Source: an uncultured Acidobacteriota bacterium (GTDB taxonomy: Bacteria; Acidobacteriota; JAQAZP01). Taken from it: a DNA stretch of 64,000 bases. The translations under genes and the position numbers were made by a program. The notes beneath the pieces were generated by a model. The model saw only the letters and a program-made list of their open reading frames with translations, made no database searches and was not told where the DNA came from. Below are positions 1 to 39,472 of the stretch, piece by piece; within the stretch, counting starts at the first letter, position 1; each line of letters begins with the position of its first letter. The stretch covers positions 1,024,001-1,088,000 of the forward strand of contig CAWIIB010000001.1 of NCBI GenBank assembly GCA_963836075.1, in the 5' to 3' direction.

Positions 1-2666
1 TCCGGCCCTTCGCGCCGCGGCAGCTGCTGTCCGCCCTGCCGGAATCGGTAAAATCAATCGCCGTCCTCGACCGGGCCAAGGAGCCGGGGTCCTCTGGCGA
101 AGCGCTCTACACCGACCTGCTCACCGCCCTGGCCGAAGGCCGTACCGAAGGCTACTCCCAGTTCGACAAGGATCCCACGATCATCGGCGGACGCTACGGT
201 CTCTCCTCCAAGGAGTTCGATCCGGCCATGGTCAAGGCGATCTACGACGAGTTGAAGAATGACTCGCCGAAGAACCACTTCACCGTGGGCATCACCGATG
301 ATGTCTCCAACTCTTCGCTGACCGTGGACCACAGCTTCGACACCGAACCGGACAAAGTGACCCGCGGCGTCTTCTTCGGTCTCGGCTCCGACGGCACGGT
401 GGGGGCAAACAAGAACTCGATCAAGATCATCGGCGAGGAAACGGACAATTACGCCCAGGGCTATTTTGTCTACGACTCGAAGAAGGCCGGCGCGGTGACC
501 GTTTCCCACCTCCGCTTCGGCCCGGACCCGATCCGCTCGATCTACCTGATCAAAAAGGCCAACTTCGTCGCCTGCCACACGGAGGTGTTTCTCGAACGCT
601 ACAACATGCTGGCCTACGCCCAGCCGGGCGCGGTCTTCCTGCTCAACTCGCAGTCGGGGCCGGAGGAGGTGTGGGACACCCTGCCCATGGAGGACCAGCA
701 GTCGATCATCGACAAGAAGCTGAAGTTCTACACCATCGACGCCTACCAGGTGGCCCGGGAGACCGGCATGGGGGTGCGGATCAACACCATCATGCAGACC
801 TGCTTCTTCGCCATCTCCGGCGTGCTGCCCCGTGACGAGGCCATTGCCCAGATCAAGAAAGCGATCAAGAAGACCTACGGCAACAAGGGTGAGGAAATCG
901 TCAAACTCAATTTCAACGCCGTGGACCAGACCCTGGCCCACCTGCACCAGGTGAAGGTGCCCGGGGCGGTGACCTCCACCAAGACCCGGCCGGCACCCGT
1001 TTCCGACGAGGCGCCCGAGTTCGTGCAGAACGTCACCGCCGAGATCATTGCCGGCCGCGGCGACGACCTGCCGGTGAGCGCCTTCCCCGTGGACGGCACC
1101 TGGCCCGTCTCCACCACCCAGTGGGAGAAGCGGAACATCGCCCTGGAGATTCCGGTCTGGGAGTCGGACATCTGCATCCAGTGCAACAAGTGCGCCATGG
1201 TCTGCCCCCATGCCGCCATCCGGCCCAAGGTCTACGACCCGAAGTATCTCGACGGCGCGCCGGCGACATTCAAGGCCGTGGACTACAAGGGCCGTGAATT
1301 CCCGGGGACCAAGTACACCCTGCAGGTGGCCCCCGAGGACTGCACCGGCTGCGAACTCTGCGTCAGGGTCTGTCCGGCCAAGGACAAGAAGGACCCCGAA
1401 CGCCTGGCGATCAACATGGCTGCGCAGCCGCCTCTGCGGGAGAGCGAGCGTGAGAACTACAAGTTCTTCCTCGACCTGCCCGACCCGGACCGCACCAAGG
1501 TCAAGACCGACACCAAGGGGACCCAGTTCTTCCGGCCCCTCTTCGAGTATTCCGGGGCCTGCTCCGGCTGCGGCGAGACACCGTATGTCAAGCTGCTGAC
1601 CCAGCTCTTTGGCGACCGGGCGATCATCGGCAATGCCACCGGCTGCTCCTCGATCTACGGCGGCAACCTGCCCACTACCCCCTACACGGTGAACGCCGAC
1701 GGCCGCGGCCCGGCCTGGAACAACTCCCTGTTTGAAGACACGGCGGAGTTCACCTACGGGTTCCGGCTGGCCGTGGATCAGAACCGGGTGGTGGCCGAGA
1801 ACCTGCTCAAGGGCCTCGGACCCAAGATCGGTCAGATTCTGGTGGATGAGATTCTCACCGCTGACCAGACGAGCGAGTTGACCATCGCCGAACAGCGTTC
1901 GCGGATCGCGGCCCTCATCGACCAGCTGAAATCGTTCGACGACCCCGAAGCCCGGCAGCTCTCCCAGCTGTCTGAATACCTGGTGCGCAAGTCGATCTGG
2001 GGCGTGGGCGGTGACGGCTGGGCCTACGACATCGGCTACGGTGGACTGGACCACGTGCTGGCCAGCAATCGCGACATGAACCTTCTGGTGCTGGACACCG
2101 AGGTGTATTCCAATACCGGCGGCCAGGCCTCCAAGGCCACGCCCATCGGGGCGATGGCCAAGTTTGCCATGGGCGGCAAAGCCATCGCCAAGAAGGACCT
2201 GGGCATGATGGCCATGAGTTACGGCTACGTCTACGTGGCCCAGGTGGCCATGGGGGCCCGGGACGCCCAGACGGTGAAAGCATTCCTCGAGGCCGAATCC
2301 TACGAGGGGCCGTCACTGATCATCGCCTATTCCCACTGCATCGCCCACGGCTTCAACCTGGCCGACGGACTGGAGCAGCAGAAGCTGGCGGTGAACAGCG
2401 GCTACTGGCCGCTCTACCGCTTCGACCCGCGGCGCACCATCAAGGGTGAAAACCCGCTGCAGCTGGACTCCAAGGCGCCGTCGGTGGATTTCCAGTCTTA
2501 CGCGCTCAACGAGACCCGCTACCGGATGCTGCAGAAGATCAACCCCGAGCGGGCGCGGATGCTGCTGGACCACGCCCAGGGAACCATCAACGCCAAGTTC
2601 CGCAAATACGAGCAGCTGGCCAAAATGAACTTTGGCGACCAGGACGAGGGGGACGGGGAAGCGTAG
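1..2666 (+). CDS. nifJ: Pyruvate:ferredoxin (flavodoxin) oxidoreductase, 5'-truncated by window edge
   Basis: Frame is open from base 3 (RPFAPRQLL...VLDRAKEPG). Motifs GLGSDGTVGANKN, two CxxCxxCxxxCP ferredoxin motifs, GACSGCGETPY and TPP motif GGDGWAYDIG. Confidence 0.97.
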   Translation, partial: RPFAPRQLLSALPESVKSIAVLDRAKEPGSSGEALYTDLLTALAEGRTEGYSQFDKDPTIIGGRYGLSSKEFDPAMVKAIYDELKNDSPKNHFTVGITDDVSNSSLTVDHSFDTEPDKVTRGVFFGLGSDGTVGANKNSIKIIGEETDNYAQGYFVYDSKKAGAVTVSHLRFGPDPIRSIYLIKKANFVACHTEVFLERYNMLAYAQPGAVFLLNSQSGPEEVWDTLPMEDQQSIIDKKLKFYTIDAYQVARETGMGVRINTIMQTCFFAISGVLPRDEAIAQIKKAIKKTYGNKGEEIVKLNFNAVDQTLAHLHQVKVPGAVTSTKTRPAPVSDEAPEFVQNVTAEIIAGRGDDLPVSAFPVDGTWPVSTTQWEKRNIALEIPVWESDICIQCNKCAMVCPHAAIRPKVYDPKYLDGAPATFKAVDYKGREFPGTKYTLQVAPEDCTGCELCVRVCPAKDKKDPERLAINMAAQPPLRESERENYKFFLDLPDPDRTKVKTDTKGTQFFRPLFEYSGACSGCGETPYVKLLTQLFGDRAIIGNATGCSSIYGGNLPTTPYTVNADGRGPAWNNSLFEDTAEFTYGFRLAVDQNRVVAENLLKGLGPKIGQILVDEILTADQTSELTIAEQRSRIAALIDQLKSFDDPEARQLSQLSEYLVRKSIWGVGGDGWAYDIGYGGLDHVLASNRDMNLLVLDTEVYSNTGGQASKATPIGAMAKFAMGGKAIAKKDLGMMAMSYGYVYVAQVAMGARDAQTVKAFLEAESYEGPSLIIAYSHCIAHGFNLADGLEQQKLAVNSGYWPLYRFDPRRTIKGENPLQLDSKAPSVDFQSYALNETRYRMLQKINPERARMLLDHAQGTINAKFRKYEQLAKMNFGDQDEGDGEA

Positions 2667-2687: not shown

Positions 2688-2725
2688 AAACGGCCGCGGT
2701 GCTCCGGCGCCGCGGCCGTTTTTTT
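2688..2725 (+). terminator. Rho-independent terminator after PFOR (possibly bidirectional)
   Basis: AAACGGCCGCGG...CCGCGGCCGTTTTTTT stem plus T tract between convergent genes. Confidence 0.85.
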
Positions 2726-2741
2726 ATGCAGAAAACCGACC

Positions 2742-3236
2742 TCAGGAAGGGGAGAGCCAAAGGCCGAGGTGGATCAGGGGGACAAGCAGGAGCCGGGACA
2801 GGCGGTGGGAGAGCATACCCAGGCGGCCCAGCCGTCCCGCCAGCGGATTGACCCAGGTCCAGGGACGGCGATGCAGCAGGAGCGTGTGCTCCGGGCCCAG
2901 GATGGCGGTCACCCGGCCGAGCATCATCTCCGAAGGGACCCATGACCAGGCCCGGGAGTTGTCCCCTTTCTGGCAGCAGGGGCGGCTGCCGTCGGCGGCC
3001 GCCCGGGACATCAGCAAGCGGTGAACCACCACCGTCTCGCCCTGGCGCAGGGCAATGATGTCGCCGCAGCGGAGCCGCTCCGGGGAGATCGGCTGAATGG
3101 TGACCCGGTCGCCGGGGGAGGCCACCGGCACCATGCTGCGCCCCTCCAGACGGAGAGTGAACTCCTGCCGGCTGTGCCGCCAGAGGTCCAGCACGGCGGC
3201 GGTCACCGGCAGCCCGGGTGCTCCCTTTTCCCCCAC
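2742..3236 (-). CDS. S24/S26-family (signal peptidase I-like, Ser-His type) peptidase; last gene of RiPP-like operon
   Basis: EGRSMVP (catalytic Ser), GDII, VVHRL (His) and KGDN motifs. Starts 4 nt after the C25 gene stop. Confidence 0.85.
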   Translation of the reverse strand: MGEKGAPGLPVTAAVLDLWRHSRQEFTLRLEGRSMVPVASPGDRVTIQPISPERLRCGDIIALRQGETVVVHRLLMSRAAADGSRPCCQKGDNSRAWSWVPSEMMLGRVTAILGPEHTLLLHRRPWTWVNPLAGRLGRLGMLSHRLSRLLLVPLIHLGLWLSPS

Positions 3237-3240
3237 CTGC

Positions 3241-5985
3241 TCACTCCCACGATTTGAGCCGCGAGGCCGGGTCTCCCAGAAGGGTGAACATGCTGACCAT
3301 CACATCGGTGGCGCCCAGAGCATGCGCGGCCACCTTGGCCTCGGTGACAATGACACCGAGACGGTCCTCCCCTTCATCAAAGATCAACGAGAAGATTTCC
3401 GGGGCCAGGAGATCCTGTTCCCAGGTGTAGCTCAGCCCACTGGGCGAGAAGCATCCGAACCCGCCGCCCAGTTCCGCAGTCGCCAGCTCCTCGGCCAGAC
3501 AATAGTAGAACGGATGCGAGAAATAGCCGTTGAGACAGGTCATGGTGAGCACGAAGGTCAGGGCGTCCTCGTTACTCAGCGACGCCACGTCGGCCGAGCG
3601 GAACATATACTCGCCGGCCCAGCCGGTCACCGACCCGTGGCCGTTGTAGTGGACGATGATCTCACCGATGTTGAAGCCCCGGACAATGTCTTCCGTGGCA
3701 TCGTCCACCACGCCGTACTGGGAGAGATACACCCGGCCAGGCACCATCCCATTGGGCAGCATGGCCAGCAGCGTCTCGTTCAGCGACTCGAAGACCGGCT
3801 CGTCGTCAGCGATAAAGAGGGCACGGGCGGGCACCGCTGCCGTCGATTGCTCGTGGGCCAGCAGCCGGGCCACCATGCGCCCGGCCATATCCAGATCGCT
3901 GGCCGGCAGCCGCCCGATACACATCTCCGGCAGGACATCGTCGCCTTCCACACAGACATACCAGTTGTCGTCCGGCGTCAGCCCCAGTTCGCTCAGTGAA
4001 AGGTGCACCGGCACCCGGCTCTGTTTTCCGGTGCCGAAATAGTCGAGGTAATCGGTGTTGGCATCCCCCAGCAGCAGAACGAACTCCGGGGCCGGGGCCG
4101 GCCACTCCCGGTAGGCATGGCCCAGGAAAGCCTGCAGCGCCGCCGGGTCGGCGATCCCGTGGTTGAAGTCGTCGTAGATATCCTCCAGGGCCACCGACAC
4201 GGCGCGGAGCCCCTGGCCCTGGCGATAGCTGACCAGCGGGTCGGCGGCCGCCAGGAACTCCCGCGGCGTGATCAGGATATAGTCAGCACCGTCACCGCCG
4301 GCCCAGAGCCCCGGCGATGTCCAGCCCTCCACCGATGCCGGGGACCGGAAACGGCCCGACGTCAGAGCCTGGTACCGTGCGGGGCCACCGGCGGTCTCTC
4401 TCCATGCCGCCGTGAACCCGCCTCCGGCCTCGCTGATGCCGACGCCCACCACGCGCTTCACGCTCAGATGGGAACTGATATCAAAGACGGCCACCTCCGG
4501 TTCCGAGAAACCGTGGACAGCAATGACCTGGGGGCCGGCCCCGGCAGTGGTGATCCAGAGCTGGTCGTCCATGGCGCGAAGACGTCTGCGGTAGTCCAGC
4601 TCGATCCAGTTGACGTATATGCTGTCCACCGCCGCCCCGGTGTCACCCGGGCAGTTCACGGTGATGGTATTCAACCCCTGGGCCAACAGATCGGAGGTGA
4701 TGGTCATCTCCTGGACAAAAACGTGGTCACCGTCCCAGAACTGGTCCCCCGCCTCGACCCCGTTGACCCGCACCCGGGTGTGATGGTTGGGATGCGGTGC
4801 CGCTGTGGAACGTCCCCGGCAACACACCCGGAGGGTTCCGTCCCACACTCCGGGAGCGAGGTTGGGAATTTCCAGCTGGTAGTCCATGGACGAGGGCGCG
4901 GTGAGCATGTCCCAGAACCAGTAGTCCTCCTCCGGCGCCCCCGGTGCCGCCTCCCACATCCGGTGGTTTTCCTCCACGTGCACGGTTTCAGTGGTGGAGG
5001 TGACCAGTCTGCCGCCGCCGGCGAGCGAACCATTCACCACATCCATCCGCTTACCCGGAGGGCCGTTCCAGTAGAGCCAGTAAACGTTGGTCCCGGTGAA
5101 GCTGCTCTCCATAGCCTGGCCGTAGAAAATGAGGCTCCCCTCGGGCCATGGCACGTCCTTTTCCGGGCCGGCCACCAGAACCGGCACTTCCCTTCCCCGG
5201 TTGAACAGTTTCAACGTGGCCCGGTCAATTGCATCCACCTCGCCGTGGCTCAAACCCGTGGAGAGCAGCGCTGCCACATAGTCAATGGCATGGAGGCCGT
5301 CTTCCTCCACCTCAATGCGCAACGCCCCGTCGCTTCGTGGGCCGGGGAGACCGACCAGTCCACCGGGGGAAGAAATGGCTGAACCCGTGCCTGGCGGAGC
5401 CTCCGGCGACGCCACAGCTCCGACCGCCGGCTGGACAAAGCTGAGCCGGACCAGCAGGCGGGTGGCACAGCGCAGGTTTCCAGCCGATGGATCCCACTGG
5501 AAGGGCTGGAATAGAACCCGGGCCATCCGGGCGCCACGCCGCACAGCCGGTGGGTCCACCGCCACCAGGGCGGCGGGATAGATCCCCGTGCCCCCGATAC
5601 ACCGTTCCGTGCCGCCGCCTTCCGGAGACAGGGTCAGGACGGGGAAGAGCCGCTGCAGCTGGTGGTGCTCGTAGTCCACATCGAGGATCTCGGCACTCAA
5701 TGCGCTTCCCTCGGGGAGCGGAATGGTGCAGCCAAGACGGGGCAATTCGGGCAGGCCGATATCCGAGGTCCTGGCCCAACCGTCCACCACCACCCGCCGG
5801 CATGGTCCGTCCGGCCCCGCGGTCGGCACCAGCCGGTAGGTCGGCAGGTTGAGTTCCAGGGTCATGCCCCGGGAGTCCCGGTCCCGCAGGTCAAGTTCAC
5901 CGGGAAGCGACAGGGCCGGGCCGGGTGTCAGAGCGCCGGCCGGCACCGTGAGCAGAAGCAACAGCAGAGTTAGTCCGTATCTCAT
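3241..5985 (-). CDS. Secreted C25-family (gingipain-like) cysteine peptidase with N-terminal propeptide
   Basis: Signal peptide, propeptide-like GLPELP region, ADYILIT, YDDFNHG, VLLLGD, IGRLP, catalytic YNGHG and MTCLNG, terminal LLGDP. Confidence 0.9.
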   Translation of the reverse strand: MRYGLTLLLLLLTVPAGALTPGPALSLPGELDLRDRDSRGMTLELNLPTYRLVPTAGPDGPCRRVVVDGWARTSDIGLPELPRLGCTIPLPEGSALSAEILDVDYEHHQLQRLFPVLTLSPEGGGTERCIGGTGIYPAALVAVDPPAVRRGARMARVLFQPFQWDPSAGNLRCATRLLVRLSFVQPAVGAVASPEAPPGTGSAISSPGGLVGLPGPRSDGALRIEVEEDGLHAIDYVAALLSTGLSHGEVDAIDRATLKLFNRGREVPVLVAGPEKDVPWPEGSLIFYGQAMESSFTGTNVYWLYWNGPPGKRMDVVNGSLAGGGRLVTSTTETVHVEENHRMWEAAPGAPEEDYWFWDMLTAPSSMDYQLEIPNLAPGVWDGTLRVCCRGRSTAAPHPNHHTRVRVNGVEAGDQFWDGDHVFVQEMTITSDLLAQGLNTITVNCPGDTGAAVDSIYVNWIELDYRRRLRAMDDQLWITTAGAGPQVIAVHGFSEPEVAVFDISSHLSVKRVVGVGISEAGGGFTAAWRETAGGPARYQALTSGRFRSPASVEGWTSPGLWAGGDGADYILITPREFLAAADPLVSYRQGQGLRAVSVALEDIYDDFNHGIADPAALQAFLGHAYREWPAPAPEFVLLLGDANTDYLDYFGTGKQSRVPVHLSLSELGLTPDDNWYVCVEGDDVLPEMCIGRLPASDLDMAGRMVARLLAHEQSTAAVPARALFIADDEPVFESLNETLLAMLPNGMVPGRVYLSQYGVVDDATEDIVRGFNIGEIIVHYNGHGSVTGWAGEYMFRSADVASLSNEDALTFVLTMTCLNGYFSHPFYYCLAEELATAELGGGFGCFSPSGLSYTWEQDLLAPEIFSLIFDEGEDRLGVIVTEAKVAAHALGATDVMVSMFTLLGDPASRLKSWE

Positions 5986-7137
5986 GTGGTCTGTTCTTCC
6001 TCTTCGGGCCGGGTGGCGTCGAGCGCCAGTTGCCTGACCAACGGTTCCTGCTCCTCAAAACGGCCCACCGTCAGCCGGAAGCAGGAGATATCGCCAATAT
6101 GCTCGATGAGCTCCTTCATCCGCATAACGGACCCGGTATCCCTGCCCCGCCCGGATGAATCGACCCGTTGTTTTATTCCGGGCAGCAGGCCGAATGCCGC
6201 CTGGTGGACTGGTATGCTCTCCAGCGCCGGTGAACGTGAGAAATCGGGCCGGGCCGTCTCACCCCTGAACACGTTGAGCAGATGGTCCCGGTGTTCCTCC
6301 AGCAGGTCCGCAAGACGGACTGCCAGCCCTTGCCCCAGCGGGTAGTCCAGCCGGAATTCGGCCACATCGGTGAGCGGTCTGGTCACTTCGATTCCGGGGT
6401 GCAGTCGGACCAGGGCATCGAGCAGCGGCTCCCAGCCCGGCTCCCGGGCCCCGATCACCAGCCGGCCCATGGCCCTGGCTTGCGGCCCCGGATCGAGGAT
6501 GAGCAGCAGGGCCGGCGCTGCCGTTGCACCGCCTGTCGTTTCACCAGCAATGGCCGGCAGAGGGATCTTTCCACCCCTCAGCGCCACGCCATCGCTTACC
6601 GACTCCGCCGGCCCTTCTTCAGGAACCACCCAGAGACTGCGCGGAAAGGGGTGAACCCGGCCGGTCCGGCGGTGGACCGGACATATTTCATCGGAATAGA
6701 GGGTGAACCCCGCTTCGGCCAGGGCCAGGGCCATGGTGGTCTTTCCCGTGCCCGGCGGCCCGGCCAGGATCACCGCCCGGCCATGGCGCACCGCCACTGC
6801 CGCGTGGAGCAGCAGGTGATGGTTCAGGCTGTCAAAAAGTGTCTGGGTGACCCACTGCCAGGCATGGTGGACCGGGGTGGGATGTCCGTCGAGGGACTGT
6901 TCCCCGTGACGGTCAGCGCCGCCCGCGGTGCGCGGCGGCCCGGGAGAAGCTGACCCCCGGCCCCTCCGGCCCGTTGAAGCAAGCGCTGATCCGCAGGTCG
7001 GCGTCAACCCCGGACACAGTGGTGCGGAACGACCCGTAATCCCGGTCAAACAGTTCCAGCAGCTGTTCCGAATCGCTGGACAGGTCCAGGTCCGTTCCGA
7101 GAATGCAGTAGCGTGCCTGGTGCCGGTCCCGGATCAC
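5982..7137 (-). CDS. HprK-related P-loop kinase-like protein (one frame break near 6930-6960)
   Basis: GTG start overlaps the rSAM stop (GTGA). N-part MIRDRHQARYCILGTDLDLSSDS continues in another frame into LLHAAVAVRHGRAVILAGPPGTGKTT...YSDE...PFPR. Confidence 0.75.
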
Positions 7138-8534
7138 GACGCCCCCTTTTCCGCAGCGGCGCCGCGAGCGCTCTCCCGATGCAAAATACCGTCGAACGCT
7201 TCCCGGTAGGCCTCCTGGCGGTAAGGACAGAAGTCGTCCCGCTCCCAGATGCTCCCCCGATGGTCCAGAGCCTGGCCCATACAGCCGGCCTGGCACAGGT
7301 TCCGCCAGTGACAGGCGGCGCACTCGGCGATCTCCCGCCGCCGCCGGCTCAGAGCCGAGCAGGCCCCGGCCATGGCGGGGTGCTCCAGGCTGGCGCGGAG
7401 GCCGTCACGCAAAACGTTTCCCAGACGAAATTCATCGCGCATCAACAGGACGCAGGGATAGGCCGAGCCGTCCACGTCGGCCACCAGGGTCCGGCCCACG
7501 GAACACCAGATGCCATCCGGGGCGATGGCCGGGGGGACTTCCAGCAGGAATCCGCTCAGACCGCAGTTGACGCTCACCGCGCAGCCGCCGCCGCGCTGCG
7601 CCGCGGCCACCTGATGGTAGAACGCCTCTTGATCCTCCACCGTCACCCCGGCGCCGATGCTGGCCCAGTTGCCTGCCGCCCGGCCCCGGCGCCCCAGGGG
7701 CAGGAAGCGGACCTGGGGCACCCCCCGATCCTCGGCCAGCCTGATGATCGCCGACAGCTGGTGCACATTCTGCTTCATGATGGTGGTGGAGAGATTGAGC
7801 TGCTCCCCCAGGCCGGCCCGCTGCAGGAGTTCCACGGCGTGCAAAGCGGCGGCGAAACTCCCCGCAGCCCTGATCCGGTCATGGGTCGCCTCGTCGGCCC
7901 CGTCCAGGCTGACCTGGACCAGCGCACCGCTCTCGGCCAGGAAGGCAGCCCACCGGTCATCGATGAGCGAACCGTTGGTCAGCAGTCGGACGCGCATGCT
8001 CCCCGCGGCATGACTGATCAAATCCTTCACCCGGGGGTGCAGCAGGGGCTCGCCGCCGCTAATGGTCACGCTCCGCGCTCCCCCGGCGGCCGCCTCGTCG
8101 ATCAGCCGGCAAGCCGCCTCGAGGGGCATGTCCAGGGTTTCCCGGTCAGCGGCGTGGTAGCAGTGGACACAGGCATAGTTGCAGCGGTGGGTGATGTGCA
8201 GAAAAAGCGATTCCGCCAGCGGGACACGCCGCGGCGGGTCGAGGGCTGGGGAATCGAGAAAGCCGCGGTGGCGGAGCTCGTCGGCCACCCGGTCCACATC
8301 GCGCCGGGCCTCGTCTCCGCCGAGGCCGTAACGCCCGGCCAGCGCGGCGGCCGCGCCCTCGCGGTCCGCTCCGGCGCCGAGAATCCCGGCAATTTCGCGG
8401 GTGGTGGCGTTTACCACCAGCCAGCGGGGATCACAGCGGTGGAGCATGACCAACCGATCCCGGGAGCCTTCGGGCAAAGGGGTGTCGGGGTAAAAAAACC
8501 AGGAAGGTTCCGGTGCTGGGGAATGTCTGTCCAA
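7134..8534 (-). CDS. Radical SAM/SPASM peptide maturase with N-terminal PqqD-like RRE domain
   Basis: CNYACVHC, SGGEPLL, QVSLDG; SPASM cysteines CSVG...AYPC...CAACHWRNLCQAGC...FC; N-terminal VVNATTREI...LAGRYGL...ARRDV...LRHRGFL is PqqD-like. Confidence 0.93.
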   Translation of the reverse strand: MDRHSPAPEPSWFFYPDTPLPEGSRDRLVMLHRCDPRWLVVNATTREIAGILGAGADREGAAAALAGRYGLGGDEARRDVDRVADELRHRGFLDSPALDPPRRVPLAESLFLHITHRCNYACVHCYHAADRETLDMPLEAACRLIDEAAAGGARSVTISGGEPLLHPRVKDLISHAAGSMRVRLLTNGSLIDDRWAAFLAESGALVQVSLDGADEATHDRIRAAGSFAAALHAVELLQRAGLGEQLNLSTTIMKQNVHQLSAIIRLAEDRGVPQVRFLPLGRRGRAAGNWASIGAGVTVEDQEAFYHQVAAAQRGGGCAVSVNCGLSGFLLEVPPAIAPDGIWCSVGRTLVADVDGSAYPCVLLMRDEFRLGNVLRDGLRASLEHPAMAGACSALSRRRREIAECAACHWRNLCQAGCMGQALDHRGSIWERDDFCPYRQEAYREAFDGILHRESARGAAAEKGAS

Positions 8535-8584: not shown

Positions 8585-8755
8585 CTAGAAGATGGCGCAG
8601 GGTGCGGGGCTGCAGGCATGCGCGGGCCCGGCCTGCTCCAGGATTTCCACGCTGCTGTAACTGGTGATTACCGGTGATTCGTAGCGGATCCGAATTCCGG
8701 AATTTTTCCGGTCGCAGCGGTCCGGCTTCCGCGGTTCAGTTCTCTCCTCAATCAT
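8585..8755 (-). CDS. Putative RiPP precursor peptide (56 aa; predicted core CSPAPCAIF)
   Basis: GGGAG-rich RBS before ATG; leader motif YESPVI; lies directly upstream of the RRE-rSAM gene. Confidence 0.82.
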   Translation of the reverse strand: MIEERTEPRKPDRCDRKNSGIRIRYESPVITSYSSVEILEQAGPAHACSPAPCAIF

Positions 8756-8839: not shown

Positions 8840-8868
8840 AATTTAACAACAACCCTCCGGGCTGTCAA
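8840..8868 (-). promoter_or_regulatory. Sigma70-like promoter of the RiPP-like operon
   Basis: Minus strand TTGACA-N17-TAAATT about 85 nt upstream of the precursor ATG. Confidence 0.65.
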
Positions 8869-39202: not shown

Positions 39203-39472
39203 TCAGCTGCTGTAGGTAATCCAGTTACCGCACATGCCGCTGTAGACGTAGCTGCCGCTGGTGCCGCCGGGGCCGAAGCCGATGCCGGCGCTGCCGCTGG
39301 CCGACTCGCTACCGCCGAAACCGCCACCGAGGTGACCGGTGAAGGTGTCATAGGGAGCACCCGTGTGCCAGGATCCCGGAGGGGGATCAGTGGTCTTGCC
39401 ACAGGCCAAAGCCGAGGTCTCGAACGACTTTTCACTCTTGATCACAGGCTTGCTGTACAGTGCCTTCTTCAT
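39203..39472 (-). CDS. Orphan putative RiPP precursor (89 aa) with Gly/Ser-rich core
   Basis: Leader MKKALYSKPVIKSEKSFETSALA then CGKTT...; standalone gene with own promoters and terminator. Confidence 0.75.
   Translation of the reverse strand: MKKALYSKPVIKSEKSFETSALACGKTTDPPPGSWHTGAPYDTFTGHLGGGFGGSESASGSAGIGFGPGGTSGSYVYSGMCGNWITYSS

Follow-up and report, generated by a model that had tools for sequence, protein, structure and literature searches.

A gene for a small homolog of signal peptidases closes an operon that encodes a radical SAM/SPASM enzyme and a short peptide precursor, raising the question of whether this homolog removes the leader of that precursor and, if so, at which bond. 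The locus lies in a 64,000-nucleotide stretch of Acidobacteriota DNA, the whole of which is referred to here as the window. A first-pass annotation had proposed that the S26-type protein was repurposed as a RiPP leader peptidase, cutting after Ala-X-Ala in two precursors and thereby exposing an N-terminal Cys.

The operon and its S26-like protein

The genes of the operon are read from the minus strand in the order precursor, RRE-bearing radical SAM/SPASM enzyme, HprK-like kinase, secreted C25 peptidase and, last, the S26-like protein, and are accompanied by the following features:

8840..8868, minus strand: promoter-like TTGACA-17 nt-TAAATT upstream of the precursor, past the terminator of a malate dehydrogenase gene (read by eye)
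8585..8755, minus strand: precursor peptide, 56 aa, MIEERTE...YESPVITSYSSVEILEQAGPAHA-CSPAPCAIF, with its ATG at 8755 behind GGGAGAGGGAG
7134..8534, minus strand: radical SAM/SPASM enzyme, 466 aa, with a fused N-terminal PqqD-like RRE (residues 29-93)
5982..7323, minus strand: HprK-like P-loop kinase gene, in two frames here (6913..7323 and 5982..7049)
3241..5985, minus strand: C25 (gingipain/PorU-like) cysteine peptidase, 914 aa, with an N-terminal signal peptide and a C25 propeptide domain
2742..3236, minus strand: S26B/LppS-like soluble serine peptidase, 164 aa, GTG start
2691..2717, minus strand: GC-rich hairpin followed by TTT, directly past the stop codon of the S26-like gene (read by eye)

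The open reading frame at 2742..3236 is confirmed as real; its GTG start lies 4 nt past the stop of the C25 gene, with GGGAG upstream. The hairpin beyond its stop is likely a terminator common to the operon and a convergent PFOR gene (3..2666, plus strand). Neither an exporter nor an NTP_transf_5 (NTase) gene is present in the operon, and there is no sodN-like gene among its open reading frames. The HprK-like gene carries a frameshift near 6929-6946 in this assembly and is a single frame in two relatives (L004, L005). Contigs of two public sequencing runs differ from the assembly exactly at this point, by +2 bases (X1) and –1 base (X3), either of which restores one frame, and we read the frameshift as an assembly error or a strain mutation.

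The S26-like protein is a clan-SF peptidase of the S24/S26 fold, on the Sec11/SipW (S26B) branch. It scores 25.9 bits against Pfam PF00717 Peptidase_S24, above the cut-off of 23.3, and 35.8 bits against NCBIfam TIGR02228 (archaeal-type signal peptidase I), below the cut-off of 51.85; its match to TIGR02754 (NiSOD maturation protease) is far under the cut-off (24.4 versus 63.25 bits), and the NCBIfam scan gave no match to SipW NF046067. When a profile of 101 homologs was searched against PDB sequences, the closest solved relatives were human SEC11C (1.1e-10) and SEC11A (1.5e-10), with the GxSMxP, VHR and KGDN segments aligned to the Sec11 catalytic motifs. Among the 101 aligned sequences there is no variation at Met35 or His72, and Ser34, Arg73, Gly91 and Asp92 reach at least 90% conservation; Ser34, His72/Arg73 and Gly91/Asp92 are likewise invariant or at least 90% conserved in smaller alignments of 19 and 15 homologs. 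The position of the general base is occupied by His72, within an HR motif, and not by Lys. The AF2 model (pLDDT 91.9, pTM 0.86) places an N-terminal helix (residues 11-22) before a beta core that carries Ser34, His72 and K90-G-D-N93, followed by two Arg-containing C-terminal helices (126-161). Foldseek matches of this model are led by the LexA C-domain (2.4e-4), ahead of SEC11C (5e-4), and include SEC11A, SipA and SpsB. The C-terminal domains of LexA, UmuD and lambda cI (S24) cut themselves by means of a Ser/Lys dyad; the window protein resembles them in its top Foldseek match and in its Pfam S24 assignment, and differs in its His72 base and in having no DNA-binding domain, a Pfam scan having revealed neither a DNA-binding domain nor any other domain that could be released. 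In fold and in the GxSMxP, HR and GDN motifs it resembles SipW, Sec11 and archaeal signal peptidase I (MEROPS S26B; TIGR02228), although, unlike these, it has no transmembrane anchor and falls under the curated TIGR02228 cut-off.

The absence of an anchor is apparent from hydropathy: the Kyte-Doolittle 19-residue maximum is 0.54 over the first 30 windows and 1.29 over the whole protein, the latter at the Arg-containing C-terminus, compared to 1.74 for the signal peptide of the C25 peptidase. By this hydropathy scan no 19-residue window reaches the level of a membrane span, and the homologs are similar. Two elements of the earlier proposal, namely that the protein keeps its Ser, His and KGDN motifs and that it has no obvious N-terminal membrane anchor, are thus borne out, the former by the Sec11 alignment and by conservation in 101 sequences, the latter by the gap between 0.54 and 1.74. 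Three canonical LepB genes lie elsewhere in the genome, each scoring over the TIGR02227 cut-off; the S26-like gene is therefore an extra copy and not the general signal peptidase of the cell. Close homologs are few (14 proteins, 52-90% identity) and are named no further than 'hypothetical protein' in any source checked, and the wider family numbers 1097 representatives at E ≤ 1e-10.

Recurrence of the cassette and contexts of the S26-like gene

The gene order precursor-radical SAM-HprK-C25-S26 recurs in a same-genus Acidobacteriota MAG (L004, the same as L027), in a metagenome contig (L005) and in five further genomes (L028, L030, L031, L033, L035), and in L029 a C25-S26 pair stands at a contig end. 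A narrower alignment of S26 homologs, used as query, yielded one locus from genome contigs and two from metagenome contigs. Orthologs of the radical SAM enzyme at E ≤ 1e-40 occur in 9 of 401 Acidobacteriota genomes, and the S26-like gene lies within the cassette in seven of these nine. The contig of one of the remaining two (G064) ends right past the C25 gene; the other cassette (G050, L053) is the sole S26-free one met, and neither an S26-like gene nor a precursor was found in it. L053 (G050:C2:22000-41900) reads radical SAM-HprK-C25 followed by a 79-aa PqqD-like open reading frame, and its radical SAM frame runs open into an upstream tRNA-adenosine-deaminase-like gene.

The S26-like gene also takes part in other layouts, namely S26-HprK-radical SAM (L045), C25-PqqD-radical SAM-HprK-S26 (L052) and, on contig C9 of the same genome as the window, HprK-PqqD-radical SAM-S26 together with three tandem precursors (L032). 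L041 and L046 have, directly after the C25 gene, a fusion of the S26-like domain with NTP_transf_5, a cytoplasmic-type domain; the L041 fusion is read from a Pfam NTP_transf_5 match combined with matches to the S26 query and to the family profile. Fusions of an S24-like domain with NTP_transf_5 are likewise found in the library representatives P0021, P0065 and P0095. A fusion of S26 with C25 in L046 was considered and rejected, as the 1319-aa open frame in question is a high-GC read-through and the S26-like domain begins a separate S26-NTase gene after the C25 stop. Two single cases may be added. The library representative P0028 is one 1071-aa open reading frame made up of an S26-like domain, a hydrophobic segment, a C25 propeptide and a C25 peptidase, and is either a true membrane-spanning fusion or a gene-call read-through. 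In P0029 (321 aa) an S26-like domain is combined with the SPASM part, the C-terminal third, of a radical SAM enzyme very like that of the window, probably through a deletion or a chimeric assembly.

Such proximity to a second peptidase admits a different role, in which the S26-like protein acts on or with its C25 neighbor and not on the precursor, be it as a private signal or propeptide peptidase (as SipW for TasA) or as a non-cutting partner to a sortase-like enzyme (as SipA for a pilus sortase). The window and 10 other loci (L004/L027, L005, L028-L031, L033, L035, L041, L046) have the C25 gene immediately before the S26-like gene, P0028 unites the two domains across a hydrophobic segment in a single frame, and SipA is among the Foldseek matches. 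We nevertheless hold this role to be unlikely, given that S26-like genes also occur in cassettes without C25 (L032, L045) and that the protein has no anchor or signal peptide to place its active site on the outer face. The S26-like protein keeps its catalytic Ser and His, which SipA is not known to do, and the precedent of LppS (next section) operates without C25.

Membership of the family does not by itself imply a role in RiPP maturation, because most of the S26-like genes examined lie outside cassettes: cassette genes are absent by tblastn from 14 of the 20 best-scoring other S26-like loci, and 13 of these 14, covered by a Pfam scan, revealed mostly housekeeping genes plus one NRPS. Matches to the family profile at E ≤ 1e-5 are found in 109 of 401 Acidobacteriota genomes, a tally that counts the unpublished genome G151. 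A tree of 28 S26-like domains does not group the cassette-linked members into one clade (8 changes, with 101 of 500 shuffles as low), and its resolution is too low to decide if they have a common origin. L006 was labeled in it as 'other context' though its 1650-base contig shows none, and L004 and L040 were omitted because they duplicate L027 and the L039 layout, respectively. The wide spread of the profile matches, the housekeeping surroundings of most genes examined and the failure of the tree to separate cassette-linked domains from the others would suit a small S24-like peptidase of general function, self-cleaving or housekeeping, that stands at the end of the operon by chance. This reading is very improbable, however, considering that the cassette position is kept across several families of the phylum, that the S26-like gene is closely spaced with the gene upstream, and that the protein contains no DNA-binding or other domain to release.

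The LppS precedent and a probable leader-peptidase role

A precedent for a leader peptidase of this type is LppS, an archaeal-type SpI homolog that processes the linear polyphosphorylated peptides (LPP) of Bacillota (Popov et al., Nat Commun 2026, PMC13381572). Deletion of lppS stops precursor processing, the S29A, H68A and D93A variants are inactive, and cleavage requires the RRE LppB; in an AlphaFold3 model backed by mutants, LppS contacts the RRE-leader sheet through its N-terminal helix (PMC13381572). The leader consensus is given as YxxPxVLxHQxIxFETxxS, with the cut mapped by mass spectrometry to the bond after F-3, E-2 and T-1 and reduced by mutations at FET and at L-10, and Ser3 of the core is polyphosphorylated by the HprK-like LppK (PMC13381572). 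The partners of LppS are an HprK-like kinase and an NTase, and its authors describe SpI-like peptidases as previously undescribed in RiPP pathways and LPPs as restricted to Bacillota (PMC13381572). The text of the paper makes no mention of radical SAM, SPASM, C25 or Acidobacteria, and cluster 3 of its supplement includes 10 Acidobacteriota rows with non-LPP RREs (PMC13381572). By term search, S24 and S26 are absent from a 2023 review of RiPP leader proteases. LppS (2026) was the only signal-peptidase-type RiPP leader peptidase found in our literature searches, which returned no other paper on such an enzyme or on the present cassette.

Compared by description, the two proteins share several features: both are of ~150-165 aa, with catalytic residues at nearly the same positions (S29/H68/D93 in LppS; S34/H72/D92 here), and both have an N-terminal helix instead of a membrane anchor and Arg/Lys-rich C-terminal helices. 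Judged by eye, the LppS-like sequences of Supplementary Data 1 match the window protein in length and layout (PMC13381572). Both enzymes are encoded with an RRE and an HprK-like kinase, with an NTP_transf_5 enzyme appearing in relatives of the window protein, and the leaders share YxxPx[VI], to which a second precursor family of this genome adds the FET motif. The two systems differ in that the present RRE forms part of a radical SAM/SPASM enzyme, that the cassette includes a secreted C25 peptidase and lacks an MsbA-like exporter, and that the host belongs to the Acidobacteriota; the leader of the in-operon precursor, moreover, is without FET and ends in GPA-x-(A/T) before Cys.

Further systems resemble the operon in part. 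In SynChlorMet (ScmC HprK-like, ScmD PqqD-like, ScmE/F radical SAM/SPASM) and GeoRSP an HprK-like protein likewise occurs together with a PqqD-like RRE and radical SAM/SPASM. Weak matches to TIGR04249, TIGR04250/1, TIGR04303 and TIGR04302 were obtained, all far below the curated cut-offs; literature searches found no papers on either cassette. SodX (TIGR02754) is likewise soluble and of the S26 type, and strips a short N-terminal leader from a single dedicated substrate. The window protein matches it weakly (24.4 bits), but the operon contains no sodN and the substrate would be an RRE-bound RiPP precursor.

Owing to the cassette linkage, the lack of an anchor, the NTP_transf_5 fusions and the LppS precedent, we consider the S26-like protein to be probably a soluble, cytoplasm-facing relative of LppS and the dedicated leader peptidase of the 56-aa precursor, a role that is better supported than any particular cut site. 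Evidence to the contrary comprises the scores under the curated cut-offs of TIGR02228 and TIGR02754, the one cassette (L053) without an S26-like gene, the lack of an exporter in an operon whose C25 peptidase offers an alternative protease, and the frameshift of the HprK-like gene in this assembly. On the same four grounds the first-pass annotation was right in kind to see a signal-peptidase homolog acting as a RiPP leader peptidase, an activity already published for the sister system LppS (PMC13381572).

In the mechanism that we propose, the radical SAM/SPASM enzyme would bind the YxxPx[IV] segment of the leader through its PqqD-like RRE domain and modify the Cys residues of the core, and the HprK-like kinase may phosphorylate a Ser or Thr, perhaps the invariant one after the first Cys. 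As with LppS, the N-terminal helix of the S26-like peptidase would dock on the sheet formed by RRE and leader, and the Ser34/His72 (Asp92) center of the enzyme would cut the leader. A two-compartment extension of this scheme can be imagined, which we regard as a long shot: held at the inner membrane face by its basic C-terminal helices, the S26-like enzyme would free a radical-SAM-modified, phosphorylated peptide with an N-terminal Cys, and after export the PorU-like C25 peptidase would join this peptide to a cell-surface acceptor by transpeptidation, or trim it. The S26-hydrophobic segment-C25 frame of P0028 might then represent a fused version of the pair.

At this locus the LppS enzyme type is joined, in Acidobacteriota, to another chemistry, that of a radical SAM/SPASM enzyme with a fused RRE, and to a secreted gingipain-like peptidase. 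If the leader-peptidase role is true, leader peptidases of the S26-like type would form a portable module, used across a far broader and uncharacterised set of RiPP cassettes that contain a kinase.

Two precursor families and candidate cut sites

Signal peptidases obey a -1/-3 rule by which small residues occupy these two positions. The Ala-X-Ala that had been noted before the first core Cys is present in the precursor at 8585..8755 (minus strand) as GPAHA|CSPAP. Such strings arise by chance, with AxAC before 1.0% of Cys and [AG]x[AGST]C before 7.8% over all six frames of the collected loci, and the A-x-A-C motif counts as evidence only because it is conserved in orthologs. Eleven precursors of this in-operon family (type 1) were compared, from the window, L004, L005, L028, L030, L031, L033, L035 (two), L054 and G000:C9:1759686-1759922. 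The motif G-P-A-x-(A/T)-C-(S/T) is shared by all 11, with Gly-Pro at -5/-4, Ala at -3, Cys at +1 and Ser or Thr at +2 in every case, while -1 is Ala in seven and Thr in four; the expected conservation of AxA-C therefore holds in full at -3 and in 7 of 11 precursors at -1. The leader of the window precursor contains YxxPxI and is without FET, and all nine precursors that have YxxP show a distance of 20 between its Pro and the Cys. GPA-x-(A/T) fits the small-residue rule, with a helix breaker at -4/-5. The conserved GPAxxC could equally serve as a recognition element for the radical SAM enzyme. Among 14 cassette-linked sequences, inspection by eye found no convincing co-variation of P1 (Ala or Thr) with residues of the S26-like protein. 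Thr is also the P1 residue of LppA (PMC13381572). Our preferred site is the bond after GPA-x-(A/T), giving the core CSPAPCAIF, to which we assign roughly even chances.

The second string of the earlier proposal, TSALA|CGKTT, exists as described, in a precursor that belongs to a different family (type 2):

39206..39472, minus strand: orphan 89-aa precursor, FET-type, Ser-terminated, outside the operon

This Gly-rich precursor is 30 kb from the operon, beside unrelated genes, and has an LPP-like leader (YSKPVI...SFET), reading ...SFET-SALA-C. It has at least 14 paralogs in the genome, on contigs C1, C8 and C9, among them the three tandem precursors of L032 (C9), the single matching maturation cluster, which has its own S26-like gene and would serve the orphan. 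The S26-like enzymes of the operon and of L032 are 36% identical over 104 residues. FET-x-A-L-(A/G/S)-C and a terminal Ser are found in 11/11 FET-type precursors examined, and the distance from YxxP to the predicted cut is 10 residues as against 12 in LPP. By homology to LPP these precursors would be cut after FET, four residues upstream of the site first proposed, leaving SALAC...; a second or alternative cut might occur at the conserved small-x-small before Cys, which, given the FET| site, is not needed to explain the S26-like gene. A lipoprotein reading of SALAC was also considered and rejected, as there is no hydrophobic signal segment and the residues misfit the lipobox consensus. A single A-x-A|C rule for both peptides is consequently not supported, with a homologous FET cut, two clusters and two S26-like enzymes all opposing it; exposure of an N-terminal Cys agrees with the conserved GPA-x-(A/T)-C of type 1 and disagrees with the SALAC end predicted for type 2.

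The FET homology also raises the rather unlikely alternative that a leader peptidase cuts both families upstream, at an LPP-equivalent fixed distance from the RRE-binding motif, at EIL(E/D/A)|(Q/E) in type 1 and FET| in type 2, so that the mature peptide would start with Q-x-G-P-A... or S-A-L-A-C... and not with Cys. LppS cuts after FET, at a distance of 12 residues from the Pro of YxxP, and does so less well when FET or L-10 is mutated. By-eye alignment to the LPP consensus maps this position to EILE|Q of the window precursor and not to AHA|C; FET is present in 11/11 type-2 precursors examined, and the type-1 Ile38, invariant in 9/9 aligned sequences, corresponds by eye to the hydrophobic Phe at P3 of LPP. 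On the other hand, the EIL(E/D/A)| cut requires Glu, Asp or Ala at P1, which is unusual for S26 enzymes under the -1/-3 rule, the type-1 leader lacks FET, and the distance is not a fixed one, as it is 12 in LPP and 10 in type 2. Knowledge of the cut site would define the mature product, of 9 residues here for the preferred cut after GPA-x-(A/T) or 16 for the upstream one, would make the cassette testable by heterologous expression, and would reveal which rule this branch of enzymes has retained, that of signal peptidases (-1/-3) or that of LppS (F-E-T).

Further precursor genes were met along the way. In genome G211 the L035 cassette contains two (2747-2899 and 5006-5140), the first 2.2 kb upstream of the second. 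A second type-1 copy at G000:C9:1759686-1759922 (plus strand) combines a different leader with an identical core CSPAPCAIF, and tblastn found no cassette genes near it. In L032 the three tandem FET-type precursors adjoin a gene for a B12-binding radical SAM enzyme (L032:4232-6391, plus strand), which resembles the RiPP C-methyltransferases of TIGR03975 (127 bits, below the cut-off), and a Trm112-like/methyltransferase gene flanks the cluster on its other side.
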